From Candidatus Micrarchaeia archaeon (lineage in GTDB: Archaea; Micrarchaeota; Micrarchaeia; Micrarchaeales; CABMGC01), in NCBI GenBank assembly GCA_049964835.1, contig JBMFWW010000001.1, forward strand, positions 1 through 64,000: 64,000 nucleotides of DNA, read 5' to 3'. Positions 24,001 to 27,000 of this stretch are shown here, one piece after another. The position numbers are program-made. Each line of letters opens with the position of its first letter. Position 1 is the first letter of the stretch.

Positions 24001-27000
24001 AGCCTGCATAACTATGCGAATAGCATTTAGTTTAATACTTGTACCTAATCTAAAATGGTTGATACTTGATGAGCCAACACACAATATAGACTCACAAGGT
24101 CTATCAAAGATTGTTCTTCTCTTAAATGAACGATTGCCAAAACTTGTAGATCAAATATTTATAATAACACACGATGAAAAATTAAAGCAGGTTTCAAACG
24201 CAAGAATATACTTATTTTTAAGAAACAAAGCAGAAAATCAAGAAACAACAATAACAGAACTGTAGATAAGTGGTTTATAACTGTTGTAGATTTTCTATCA
24301 TATCGTTAAATATTAATTGCGTATCTTTAATCTAATTGTTAAATAAAAAAAGTATGGGCGTAAAGCCCAAATAAAAATAAATAATTGGCAAACTGTTTAT
24401 ATAGAGTCTAATCCAAATCCTCTTTCTTCTCTTTCATTACTTTCTTTGCCTATAACGGAGCTTCCAGAAACACCAGTAAATATAGCAATAACCTCTACCT
24501 TGCCGGTATATGCATTGTCCAATCTTGCACCCCAAGTAACGTTTGCATTTGCAGAAACGCTTTCAGTAAGCTTTTCTCCTATCTTATTTGCATCTCCTAA
24601 TGTCATATCTGGGCCTCCAGTAATATGAAGCAAAACTCCATTTGCTCCTTCATAATCAACATCAAGTAATTTATTATTAAGAGTACTTCTTACTACTTCC
24701 TCTATTTTATTTGCTCCCTGTCCTGTACCAACACTTATCATAGCTAGACCACCATTTCTCATAATGGTTCTCAAATCGGCAAAGTCCAAATTTATCATAC
24801 TTGGCTGTGTAATCGCTTCAGTAATACCTCTTACAGCTTTAGCTGTTATCTCATCCGCTATCTGAAATGTTTGTTCTATTGGAAGGTTAGGATAAAGTTT
24901 GACTAGCCTTTGATTATCTATAACTATTAACGTATCAACAAACTGTCTTAGCTTTGCTATTCCCTTCTTAGCCGTTTCTAGCCTGCTCCTTTCTAGCGCA
25001 AAAGGTAGTGTTACAATGCCTACGACTATTGCTCCTACCTCCTTGCTTACTCTAGCAACTACAGGAGCGGCGCCAGTTCCTGTTCCTCCTCCCATTCCTG
25101 CCGTTAGAAATATAAGGTTTTTATCTCGTATCATTAGCTCTATATCCATTCTTGAAAGTTCAGCCGCCTTTTCTCCCATCTCTGGAAAGCCTCCAGCTCC
25201 AAGCCCTCTAGTAATTTCCTTCCCTAGCATTAATCTATTTATGTTCTGACTCAACATGCCTAATTGCTTTCCATCTGTATTGAAAGCGTATAATCCTGCG
25301 CCTTTTATGTCCATACTATTTAACCTATGTACTGTGTTGTTGCCTCCGCCACCTACTCCGACAACCGCTATCTTAGGTTTAAAAAGATCATAATCAAAGT
25401 CATTATTCTCTTTTTTCTCAGGTTCTGCCCCAAAGTTTGAATACATAGTACCATCTCATAGATTATCTCTACAAATATTAATAAAATACTTTCTAAGCAA
25501 TGTGTATAATGCAAATACCTATATATTCAATTTTTTTGAAACATCCTTCATGTTTAATATATCTGTTTTTGTTATCTCATTTATGAAGATAGTTGCATAG
25601 GAACCAGACTGCAAAGAGAACTTAACCAAAAAGTCTTCATTAATTTTATTTAGAGAGATATCTTTTGCATATCCTAATGTTGTTCTGAAAGAGCCCTTCA
25701 TACTCAACTCAGGCATATGGCTTATCTTAAAAGAGTTTTTATCAATCTCTATTTTTTCAAGAAGATCTCTTTGATACTCATCTATAAATTTGTCTTCAGT
25801 TTCATATCCTATAAGAGGCAAAACAGGAAACTCTCCATCTCCATTGTCAGATATACTTTCTATATCGGGAAAACCAAAGTTGTTTCTTTTGCTTTTTACT
25901 TTTATATCATTTAAATCTTTATTTTTAATTCGCTCTGATAAAACAACATTGAAGATTGCAGACTCAACAGCATGTATAAACATTATGCTTATTCCTCTAG
26001 GTATCCTTCTCAATGCATTTGCATAGTTCTTGTCCTTTGATAAGTACTCTATTACCATATGTTCATATCTTAAATGTTTTGGAAAGTACTCTCTTGCCTT
26101 TTCATAATCTTGATCATCTTTCAAGCGATTTCTTGCTTCTACACATTCCTCATCATTTTCGTTTTTTGTATTTGTCAAAAAGGATATCACTGCCTCTTCA
26201 AACTCACCTTTTATTATGTGCAAGCCGATATCAAAGTTATTTAATCTGTATCCGAATCTCTGTCTGTCAAAGTAATTTGGAAAAAATCCATTTATTTTAT
26301 CCAATGTCTCCTTTGCATATTCTGAATTTCCTTCCCTTACCATTACCTCAAACGCATTGCCTATGTTGTTTCCAAGTTCCACTGGACCTCCCTTCCAAGC
26401 ACCATTTATTTGTATATCTTTTAATTTTAATCCTTCTAATCTTTTAGGTTCTATCTTATGTATGCTTGCAAGTTGAACAGAAACAGAAAACTTGTCCTTA
26501 GTTCCGCAGTATGCAAATGCACCTTTGCCTCTTCCAAATTTTTTAGCTACCGCAAGCAAAGCACGTATGGTGTCCCAGTTGCGCTTTTCAATAATGAATG
26601 TAGTGAACTGCGATTCGTTATCTACTTTAAAGTTTAGCTCTTCTGGTTTGTAATGCACACCGGGATTAAGTACAATACCTGTACTTGTAATCTCCTTTAC
26701 GACAAAGTCCTCATAAAACTTTTTAATTATGCCTCCTGTACCTTTAGTATCTGATAAAAACTCCATTTAATCTAATTTAATAAACCTTATGTTGTAATAA
26801 ATATTGTGGTCATTTGGCAGATAACTCACTTGTCGAACGTATGCTTTATAGACTTGTCAAAAAACACATAGCAGGAACTACGATGAGCGCTGCAATATCA
26901 AAAGCTGCTGAGCTCAATGTTAAAAAAATACCGGTATCTGTTATGTTCCTTAGTGGAACCATCGACACAAAATCAAAAGCACGCTATATTACTTCTACTT

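Follow-up and report, generated by a model that had tools for sequence, protein, structure and literature searches.

TruD as the only detectable pseudouridine synthase of a Micrarchaeales genome, and the missing Cbf5 and Nop10 of two related archaeal families

Pseudouridine synthases of archaea and of reduced genomes

Pseudouridine 55 of tRNA is described as universally conserved, and Cbf5/dyskerin, together with Nop10, is regarded as belonging to the core of Archaea and Eukarya. In Archaea, formation of pseudouridine 55 is known for two enzymes only, Pus10 and Cbf5; in vitro, Cbf5 can modify tRNA with no guide RNA (PMC7912444). A cbf5 deletion strain of Haloferax volcanii is viable and still makes pseudouridine 55, which a review statement attributes to Pus10 (PMC7912444). 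The TruD homologue of this organism, HVO_0658, is the predicted enzyme for pseudouridine 13 in many tRNAs (PMC2584109). Nanoarchaeum equitans is reported to be without Pus10 or TrmY (PMC7337903; PMC2584109), and it keeps homologues of Cbf5 and Nop10 (PMC2584109). Among Mollicutes, TruB is reported missing from M. genitalium, M. pneumoniae and three hemoplasmas, and the rRNA pseudouridine synthase RluD is kept in all members of the group (PMC4014445).

The genome under study (G000; 805,809 b in 46 contigs, 94.43% complete) belongs to f1, which with f3 makes up the two large families of Micrarchaeales; a further family of this order, f2, is represented by G001. Like the TruB-less Mollicutes, f1 and f3 are reduced, host-dependent cells that have lost the synthase for pseudouridine 55. 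Mollicutes, however, are bacteria that keep RluD and never had an H/ACA system, whereas f1 and f3 are archaeal, comprise ~200 species-level genomes and have lost both position-55 enzymes together with the guide-RNA machinery. They share with N. equitans the state of a reduced DPANN archaeon without Pus10, but have gone one step further than N. equitans, G001 and the Pus10-less families of Micrarchaeota, all of which keep Cbf5 and Nop10. The H. volcanii deletion strain likewise lives without Cbf5, but it was made in the laboratory and its tRNA retains pseudouridine 55, whereas f1 and f3 are naturally without both enzymes.

That reduced symbionts lose RNA-modification genes is known already, as is the loss of TruB in some Mollicutes. 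The initial annotation had presented the present case as the first cellular lineage without a TruB/Cbf5-family enzyme, a claim that does not stand, several Mollicutes having been reported without TruB (PMC4014445). Full-text literature searches returned no report of a lineage without TruB/Cbf5 in Archaea, nor of the findings given here.

The truD gene and its candidate substrates

The truD/pus7 gene (tRNA pseudouridine synthase D) lies at 25519..26766 on the minus strand of the window, the whole 64-kb stretch of DNA that was analysed, and encodes an ORF of 415 aa with an ATG start and with Pfam and TIGRFAM matches. It scores 304.8 bits against the Pfam model TruD PF01142 (cut-off 27) over profile positions 7-412 of 412, and 182.3 bits against TIGR00094 (cut-off 172.2); against the narrower NF00215x equivalogs its scores fall under the cut-offs. 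The sequence aligns over its full length with the solved structure of M. mazei TruD (1z2z_A; E 1.2e-37, query 4-406), and sequence comparison also matched human PUS7 (5kkp_A; 1.3e-24), yeast Pus7 (7mzv_A; 7.8e-19) and E. coli TruD (1sb7_A; E 1.7e-08). The motif GTKDK occupies residues 88-92 and includes Asp91, which we take to be the catalytic residue of the GxKD motif, and QRFG, of the conserved (N/F)xxxQRFG motif, begins at residue 169. GTKDK aligns with its counterparts in 1z2z_A and 20 further Micrarchaeota TruDs, and 42 of the 43 columns invariant among those 20 are kept; the sole change, A87C, adjoins the motif. The profile scores, the comparison with solved structures and the motifs all agree, and the gene is, as judged from its sequence, one for an ordinary, intact archaeal TruD/Pus7. 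It resembles the archaeal enzymes of M. mazei (1Z2Z) and H. volcanii (HVO_0658) in the GxKD aspartate, in QRFG, in length and in the presence of tRNAs with U13/UGUAG. It differs from other archaeal TruD/Pus7 proteins in context only, as the sole pseudouridine synthase of its genome; the protein itself is no different.

By homology, TruD would isomerise U13 of the D-stem in many tRNAs. U35 of tRNA-Tyr, whose anticodon loop carries CUGUAG, is probably a target as well. Candidate sites in G000 are UGUAG at positions 11-15 of tRNA-His and tRNA-Asp, and U13 is found in 19 further tRNAs. tRNA genes were located by ARAGORN and a T-arm parser, and the six in the window were checked with the Rfam tRNA model RF00005, whose scores are given here. 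tRNA-Val(GAC) (31537..31607, +; 67.3 bits) carries U13 and the T-loop TTCAATT; it is a candidate TruD substrate whose U54-U55 would stay unmodified. tRNA-Gln(UUG) (62045..62118, +; T-loop TTCGAAT; 60.5 bits), also with U13, is another candidate substrate. U13 is present too in an intron-containing tRNA (59743..59879, -; T-loop TTCAAAT; 48.7 bits) that ARAGORN calls Arg(cct), a call made uncertain by the long intron. In the intron-containing tRNA-Phe(GAA) (55254..55363, +; 59.4 bits), the T-loop is TTCAAAT with U54-U55 and position 13 is not U. An intron-containing tRNA that ARAGORN calls Ala(tgc) (20463..20589, +; 40 bits) has the same T-loop, TTCAAAT.

Absence of other pseudouridine synthases in G000 and its relatives

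Six-frame profile searches over the whole G000 assembly at E<=10 gave no match to TruB_N, CBF5 (TIGR00425), Pus10 (TIGR01213), PseudoU_synth_1 or PseudoU_synth_2, the last of these being searched for in G000 alone. In 14 control genomes, the models matched as follows: TruB_N and TIGR00425 in 14/14 each, PseudoU_synth_1 in 13/14, PseudoU_synth_2 in 10/14 (all bacteria) and TIGR01213 in 5/14, including all 4 archaea. A divergent Cbf5 or Pus10 missed by the Pfam and TIGRFAM models was considered and rejected: phylum-specific profiles, for which 13 Cbf5 and 8 Pus10 sequences from other Micrarchaeota were used, gave best E-values of 0.15 and 1.2, respectively, when searched with every filter disabled against the 14,468 six-frame ORFs of at least 25 aa in G000. 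A gene hidden in N runs was also rejected, the 22 runs (3,569 b in total; longest 515 b) being too short to conceal one with no match showing in the flanks. In the 806-kb assembly, no pseudouridine synthase other than TruD is detectable, as had been proposed initially. The weak Nop10p match noted at that stage was reproduced exactly: it is the sole one in G000, scores 21.8 bits and lies at G000:C21:6869-6937 inside a 1213-aa frame.

Gene loss is selective. Retention of the C/D-box machinery, part of the same initial proposal, is confirmed, with L7Ae (G000:C4:37163-37441; 97.2 bits), Nop5 and fibrillarin all present, and TrmI/GCD14 is kept in G000 (66.1 bits), in 11/12 genomes of f1 and in 18/18 of f3. 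L7Ae is common to C/D RNPs and the ribosome and is hence uninformative on H/ACA. An Rfam scan of the window at gathering scores returned the six tRNAs and nothing else; archaeal H/ACA families in Rfam are narrow, and a blank result says little.

The genome comparison covered the phylum Micrarchaeota, and the relatives are multi-contig metagenome bins except for six single-contig genomes. The TruB_N search took in ~200 genomes of the order, and for the remaining protein families between 30 and 92 Micrarchaeales genomes were sampled. TruB_N, the Cbf5 domain, was found in 0/100 genomes of f1 and 0/99 of f3, i.e., 0/199 (0/53 and 0/75, or 0/128, at >=80% completeness; 0/86 at >=90%), compared with 159/172 genomes from 28 other Micrarchaeota families in bins of comparable quality. 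Nop10 exceeds its cut-off in 0/58 Micrarchaeales versus 41/43 genomes of other families. Small ORFs of G062 (16.7 bits, with a single internal TAA) and G075 (16.9 bits) give weak Nop10-like matches, which may be relics or have arisen by chance. The pattern first described in relatives holds on these far larger samples, and the proposed loss of Cbf5 and Nop10 is borne out for f1 and f3.

Pus10 (TIGR01213) exceeds its cut-off in 0/93 Micrarchaeales (35 of f1, 57 of f3 and G000) versus 70/108 other genomes, and matches below the cut-off occur in 2/35 genomes of f1 and 0/57 of f3. In one f1 genome, G050 (88% complete), a contig of 2,894 b with 40% G+C carries a genuine Pus10 gene that is truncated at the contig end and represented by its N-terminal part (42.5 bits to TIGR01213, 37 bits to the phylum-specific profile); the fragment reflects either contamination during binning or a true exception within f1. 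TruA is found in 1/101 Micrarchaeota genomes, a phylum-wide absence. Since TruA is absent across the phylum and Pus10 is absent in many families, both losses are older or recurrent and not specific to the clade. Gar1 (PF04410) exceeds its cut-off in 0/101 genomes, including 0/43 of Cbf5-bearing families (the control matched 3/4 archaea). Because Gar1 is undetectable throughout the phylum, its absence here is uninformative, and its earlier use as evidence has to be given up.

The trait had also been extended to the whole order. In G001, which belongs to this order too, Cbf5 (92.1 bits) and Nop10 (45.9 bits) are retained and share a contig, and therefore the absence does not define Micrarchaeales. 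A tree of L34e, cmk and L14e (410 columns, 18 taxa) places G001 on the Micrarchaeales side with support of 98-100, whereas its position relative to f1 and f3 receives 42-72 only, a branching so poorly supported that one loss and two losses are not distinguishable.

Gene order points the same way as the profile counts. Among 13 loci of Cbf5-bearing genomes, 10, including that of G001, have L34e-cmk-L14e followed directly by cbf5, and the other three have different neighbours; the L34e-cmk-L14e-cbf5 cluster has also been described in Asgard archaea (PMC10833476). In f1, L14e has a class-III aminotransferase as its next neighbour in G002, G006 and the single-contig G014, and it is followed by TatD in G020, also a single contig. 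In f3, cbf5 is not in the slot after L14e in the single-contig genomes G015, G029, G065 and G071, nor in G003. The slot is thus contiguous without cbf5 in nine f1/f3 relatives, six of them single-contig, which upholds the earlier view that the absence is not an assembly gap. In G000, cbf5 was found neither in the 675 b between L14e and the contig end nor upstream of S13. The slot protein of f1 was considered as a replacement enzyme and rejected, as it is a class-III aminotransferase (343-359 bits).

Probable stepwise loss and tRNA position 55

At a probability of about 0.8, these results are best read as the outcome of a stepwise loss that left an ordinary TruD as sole synthase, with no pseudouridine 54/55 in tRNA and no guided pseudouridines in rRNA. 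TruA-type enzymes and detectable Gar1 would have gone from the whole phylum, then Pus10 from many of its families, and f1 and f3 would subsequently have lost Cbf5 along with its partner Nop10, so that the H/ACA ribonucleoprotein was removed and TruD remained as the last pseudouridine synthase. From the gene absences we infer that pseudouridine 55 itself is missing; tRNA positions 54 and 55 would both be without pseudouridine and rRNA would be without guide-directed pseudouridines, while 2'-O-methylation by C/D RNPs and m1A57/58 formation by TrmI would continue. The initial interpretation as a whole is partly supported.

An unrecognised enzyme, either unrelated to the six known families or too diverged for HMMs to detect, could make pseudouridine 55, in which case the genes were lost and the modification was not. 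Most tRNA genes here still have U54-U55-C56 in the T-loop, and Grosjean et al. left room for an unidentified pseudouridine synthase family behind those sites of H. volcanii that had no assigned enzyme (PMC2584109). However, U55 contacts G18 and would for this structural reason be kept whether modified or not (PMC7912444), the phylum-specific profiles gave nothing better than the E of 0.15 reported above, and sequence-profile searches found no candidate gene. Loss of Nop10, for which no function without Cbf5 is known, also kept step with that of Cbf5, and we regard an unrecognised enzyme as unlikely.

A considerably smaller chance is given to a retained TruD whose widened specificity extends to position 55. 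TruD is present in 58/58 Micrarchaeales genomes at >=92% completeness (f1 20/20, f3 37/37, plus G000), and family f4, in which Cbf5 and Pus10 are both found, has none (0/9), a distribution that would suit this idea; the universal retention is, however, explained equally well if the cells require pseudouridine 13 or 35. The protein is of normal length, with one match in G000 and thus a single copy. Of the 72 columns invariant in 10 TruDs of other families, 0 are changed in at least 10 of 11 Micrarchaeales TruDs, and family-model scores overlap with those of other families. To our knowledge, no TruD acts on tRNA position 55.

Micrarchaeota are small-genome episymbionts, and an 806-kb genome fits host dependence, so the host archaeon might supply these activities as enzymes or modified tRNAs imported across the cell contact. 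Yet tRNA genes, TrmI, the C/D machinery and TruD are all still encoded in the genome, which argues for RNA maturation of its own, and transfer of RNA modification enzymes between Nanoarchaeum and Ignicoccus was judged unlikely by the authors who discussed it (PMC7337903); host supply appears highly improbable. An artefact of incomplete assemblies or binning, to which the 94.43% completeness, the 46 contigs and the cbf5 slot close to a contig end might point, is given a negligible chance in the face of the uniformly negative TruB_N counts, at high completeness as well, the contiguous slots of the six single-contig genomes and the recovery of TruB_N from comparable bins by the same search.

If stepwise loss down to TruD is the correct reading, archaeal translation can run without these modifications, TruD is the pseudouridine synthase kept last, and the order of loss was Pus10, then Cbf5 and Nop10, and Trm56 in one family. 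We lean slightly towards a broader proposal, in which f1 and f3 form a natural archaeal clade of ~200 species-level genomes translating without tRNA pseudouridine 54/55 and guided rRNA pseudouridines, the loss having been prepared by a phylum-wide loosening of U55 (functional tRNAs with C55, or with G55 paired to a compensating A18) and the pseudouridine 13/35 that TruD makes being the only indispensable one. With no mutants required, the clade would offer a natural test of what pseudouridine 55 and the pseudouridines of rRNA do, and Micrarchaeota are available in co-culture.

The results also point to a phylum in which tRNA position 55 is not always U. The initial annotation assumed a plain U54-U55 T-loop; this stands for the 35/42 tRNA genes of G000 with U54-U55-C56 and fails for the other 7/42, which have C or G at position 55. 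A T-arm pattern with a base other than U at this position (V55) occurs in 111/172 genomes of other families as well, and ARAGORN found real C55/G55 tRNAs in 18/30 sampled loci of f4 and f9, two families with both Cbf5 and Pus10. That non-U55 tRNAs result from the loss of Cbf5 and Pus10 was accordingly rejected, such tRNAs occurring also in families that keep both enzymes. Among U55 and V55 matches in the same stem context, the V55 share is 13.8% in f1, 18.2% in f3 and 10.1% in the rest, which is a modest enrichment among related genomes and not a statistical test, with hand-transcribed counts for f1 and f3. Because the phylum already uses tRNAs without U55, the loss was probably tolerable. An example in the window is the intron-containing tRNA-Thr(CGU) (37433..37545, +; ARAGORN; RF00005 53.1 bits), with the T-loop TGCGACT and G at position 55; its T stem (5/5) and acceptor stem (7/7) are fully paired, and its D-loop, AGTAGTA, has A at the usual G18 site.

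TruD and the pseudouridine synthase inventory

Judged from its sequence, the gene at 25519-26766 on the minus strand of the window is an ordinary archaeal truD/Pus7. Its ATG-initiated ORF encodes 415 aa and matches the whole Pfam TruD model (304.8 bits, profile positions 7-412 of 412), scores above the cut-off of the NCBIfam equivalog TIGR00094 (182.3 vs 172.2 bits), and aligns over its full length with the Methanosarcina mazei TruD of known structure (1z2z_A, E 1.2e-37), with weaker alignments to human Pus7, yeast Pus7, and E. coli TruD. Relatives with 65-68% identity come from Candidatus Micrarchaeota and Micrarchaeaceae bins. 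The motifs GTKDK (Asp at residue 91) and QRFG are both intact. In an alignment with 20 other Micrarchaeota TruDs extracted from their genomes, the protein retains 42 of the 43 columns invariant in those 20 (the sole change is A87C), and none of the 72 columns invariant in 10 TruDs of other families is altered in at least 10 of the 11 Micrarchaeales TruDs. The conserved motifs and columns therefore give no sign of altered function, and the identity and integrity of the enzyme are established. TruD would make pseudouridine 13/35, as predicted from its enzyme family; candidate substrates are UGUAG at positions 11-15 in tRNA-His and tRNA-Asp, U13 in 19 more tRNA genes, and the tRNA-Tyr anticodon loop, which contains CUGUAG. 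The 349-aa product of the neighboring gene (24397-25446, minus strand) contains the stretch GGGTGTG and is a putative member of the FtsZ/tubulin family.

The initial annotation regarded TruD as the only pseudouridine synthase in the assembly (805,809 b, 46 contigs, 94.43% complete), and a six-frame search at E<=10 bears this out: the TruD profile has this single match, and TruB_N, CBF5 (TIGR00425), Pus10 (TIGR01213), PseudoU_synth_1, and PseudoU_synth_2 have none, with controls positive as expected. Phylum-specific profiles, derived from Cbf5 (13 proteins) and Pus10 (8 proteins) of other Micrarchaeota families, were searched against 14,468 six-frame ORFs with all filters off; the best hits had E 0.15 for Cbf5 and 1.2 for Pus10. 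The N bases of the assembly total 3,569 and are spread over 22 runs; the longest run, at 515 b, is too short to conceal Cbf5- or Pus10-type genes whole. This genome has no recognizable genes for Cbf5, Nop10, Pus10, TruA, or RluA/RsuA. The C/D-box machinery is retained, as had been annotated: L7Ae, Nop5, and fibrillarin match at 97.2, 163.5, and 261 bits, respectively.

Absence of Cbf5, Nop10, and Pus10 in two families

Cbf5, Nop10, and Pus10 are absent across two families of the order Micrarchaeales: f1, which holds the genome studied here, and f3. In an order sample of 201 genomes, TruB_N (the Cbf5 domain) was found in 0/100 genomes of f1, 0/99 of f3, and 0/86 of those at least 90% complete, and in the one genome (G001) of a third family, f2. 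Among 301 genomes of the phylum at least 80% complete, it was found in 0/53 of f1, 0/75 of f3, and 159/172 of 28 other families. Nop10 exceeded the cut-off in 0/21, 0/37, and 41/43 (101 genomes at least 92% complete), and Pus10 in 0/36, 0/57, and 70/108 (201 genomes at least 88% complete), the f1 counts including the present genome. TruD is retained in every Micrarchaeales genome examined (20/20 in f1, 37/37 in f3) and in 35/43 others, among 101 genomes at least 92% complete. Two genomes flagged as unpublished, G068 (f1) and G027 (f3), count once each in these tallies, and no claim depends on either alone. Family f4 is the reciprocal of the TruD-only Micrarchaeales: it has Cbf5 and Pus10, and TruD is found in 0/9 of its genomes at least 92% complete.

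Some Pus10 match occurs in 106/108 genomes of the other families, the weak ones (~22-47 bits, model positions 290-373) falling on Cbf5 genes. In the f1 relative G050, a genuine Pus10 gene is represented by its N-terminal part (C55:2593-2892, locus L024) and breaks off where its 2,894-b contig (40% G+C) ends; either this contig is a contaminant from binning, or f1 includes a true exception to the loss. Micrarchaeales do give weak Nop10 matches (16-26 bits); these cover the zinc-ribbon part of the model, in ORFs of ~405 aa or 1150-1213 aa, and Nop10-bearing genomes give the same matches as second hits. The 21.8-bit Nop10p match noted earlier in the present genome is one of them. Two small ORFs in relatives (G062:C11:289255-289341 and G075:C14:54409-54465; 16.7 and 16.9 bits) match the C-terminal half of the Nop10p model, and one of the two has a TAA within it. 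These matches may be remnants of the lost gene or may have arisen by chance.

That the absence of Cbf5 is not an assembly gap is supported by gene order. In loci of Cbf5-bearing genomes, cbf5 lies immediately after L34e-cmk-L14e in 10/13 (the other three have different neighbors) and is followed by S13-S4-S11 in 7/13; the same L34e-cmk-L14e-cbf5 cluster is known from Asgard archaea, as a portion of PMC10833476 describes. In relatives lacking cbf5, including the single-contig genomes G014, G020, G015, G029, G065, and G071, the slot is contiguous. Within f1, L14e is followed by a class-III aminotransferase in G002 (3 contigs), G014, and G006 (5 contigs), and by TatD on the opposite strand in G020. 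In f3, the cluster is contiguous in G015, G029, G065, G071, and G003 (8 contigs), where no ORF has an E-value below 0.16 against the Cbf5 profile. In the present genome, the contig extends 675 b beyond L14e; this stretch holds a 102-aa ORF assigned to no family, and no cbf5 is found there or upstream of S13. The aminotransferase (343-359 bits; loci L030-L032) occupies the cbf5 position of other families.

The initial annotation took the trait to mark the whole order. G001 (~60 contigs, 82% complete) contradicts this: its contig C11 (loci L034 and L071) carries Cbf5 (92.1 bits) at the canonical position after L14e and Nop10 (45.9 bits) ~9.4 kb from it; no true Pus10 was found in this genome. 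In a tree of L34e, cmk, and L14e, a split with 98-100% support places this contig with the Micrarchaeales; the tree does not order it relative to f1 and f3 and fits one loss as well as two. TruA and Pus10 are indeed both missing in the present genome, but TruA is missing phylum-wide (found in 1/101) and Pus10 in many other families; what sets the clade apart is that Cbf5 was lost together with Nop10. The absence of Gar1 carries no weight as evidence, since PF04410 exceeds its cut-off in 0 of 101 genomes, including 0/43 of Cbf5-bearing families. Gar1 is thus undetected throughout, though Nop10 occurs in 41 of these genomes; most genomes of the Nop10-bearing families have Cbf5 in the larger TruB_N phylum sample. 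Either PF04410 misses the Gar1 of Micrarchaeota, or their H/ACA particles function without it.

Predicted consequences for RNA modification

No archaeal enzymes other than Pus10 and Cbf5 are known to make pseudouridine 54/55 (PMC7912444), and on this ground tRNA of this lineage would lack both residues. rRNA would likewise lack guide-directed pseudouridines, as far as enzyme families predict. The main rival, that an unrecognized enzyme makes pseudouridine 55, seems unlikely. The gene-loss pattern itself is well supported as real and is directly testable in cultured Micrarchaeota. Losses of the same kind are known from reduced bacteria, and the claim that no cellular lineage had been known to lack TruB/Cbf5-family enzymes has to be given up: Grosjean et al. 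(PMC4014445) report TruB missing in certain Mollicutes, namely three hemoplasmas, M. genitalium, and M. pneumoniae. For Archaea, full-text literature searches returned no report of such a lineage, and the pattern is new as far as these searches reach. The nearest archaeal case, Nanoarchaeum equitans, is without Pus10 but keeps Cbf5 and Nop10, as described in sections of PMC2584109 and PMC7337903.

The erosion of RNA modification is selective, not wholesale. TruD and the C/D proteins are kept, as is TrmI/GCD14 (m1A57/58), which scores 66.1 bits in the present genome and is found in 11/12 genomes of f1, 18/18 of f3, and 30/30 others. Trm56, the Cm56 methyltransferase, was not found in this genome or in 12 other genomes of f1, and is present in 13/18 of f3 and 29/30 of other families. 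By analogy with Pyrobaculum, where a passage of PMC7912444 has Cm56 made via a C/D guide, a guide could provide Cm56 in f1.

tRNA position 55 and other tRNA features

ARAGORN predicts 42 tRNA genes in the present genome, some of them on very short contigs and possibly duplicate or foreign. Position 54 is T in all 42; position 55 is T in 35, C in five, and G in two, so that the plain U54-U55 T-loops previously described do not extend to 7/42. These seven (window 37433-37545, plus strand; C1:85395-85468, C1:127326-127400, C1:127515-127618, C2:68977-69051, C3:45956-46042, and C15:8548-8659) have canonical positions 54, 56, 57, and 58 and perfect T and acceptor stems. The G55 tRNAs are Thr(CGU), at window 37433-37545 (53.1 bits with the Rfam tRNA model), and Ala(CGC). 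U55 is described as conserved and as the partner of G18 (PMC7912444); both G55 tRNAs have A in place of G18, possibly a compensating tertiary pair, and GG is kept in the C55 tRNAs.

C55/G55 tRNAs are not peculiar to the enzyme-less clade. The pattern GGGTVCRANTCCC has matches in 123/128 genomes of f1 and f3 (backwards-pattern control, ~0.2-0.4 hits per genome) and in 111/172 of other families. ARAGORN finds a C55 or G55 tRNA in 18/30 sampled loci of f4 and f9, families that have Cbf5 and Pus10; the phylum therefore already tolerates tRNAs unable to carry pseudouridine 55. Non-U55 tRNAs are somewhat more frequent in the clade without the enzymes: with hits of the U55 pattern, given the same stems, as the reference, their share of hits is 13.8% in f1, 18.2% in f3, and 10.1% in others. 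The G55 tRNAs of f4 and f9 are tRNA-Ala, and their D-loop reads AGCAGCA or AGTAGCA; one f9 example combines AGCAGCA with the T-loop TGCGAGT.

Three tRNA genes at C30:16-497, on a 944-b contig, have TTCAAGT T-loops and A+T-rich stems unlike the rest, and this contig may not belong to the genome but be foreign. The tRNA-Asp on C28 is identical to that on C4, and near-identical tRNA genes occur on C25 and C37. Many tRNA genes have long introns (gene lengths 104-137 b), and ARAGORN anticodon calls are doubtful for several intron-bearing ones; intron entries include window 20463-20589, 37433-37545, 55254-55363, and 59743-59879, and C3:45956-46042. In one of the intron-bearing genes, the intron apparently lies in the D-arm.
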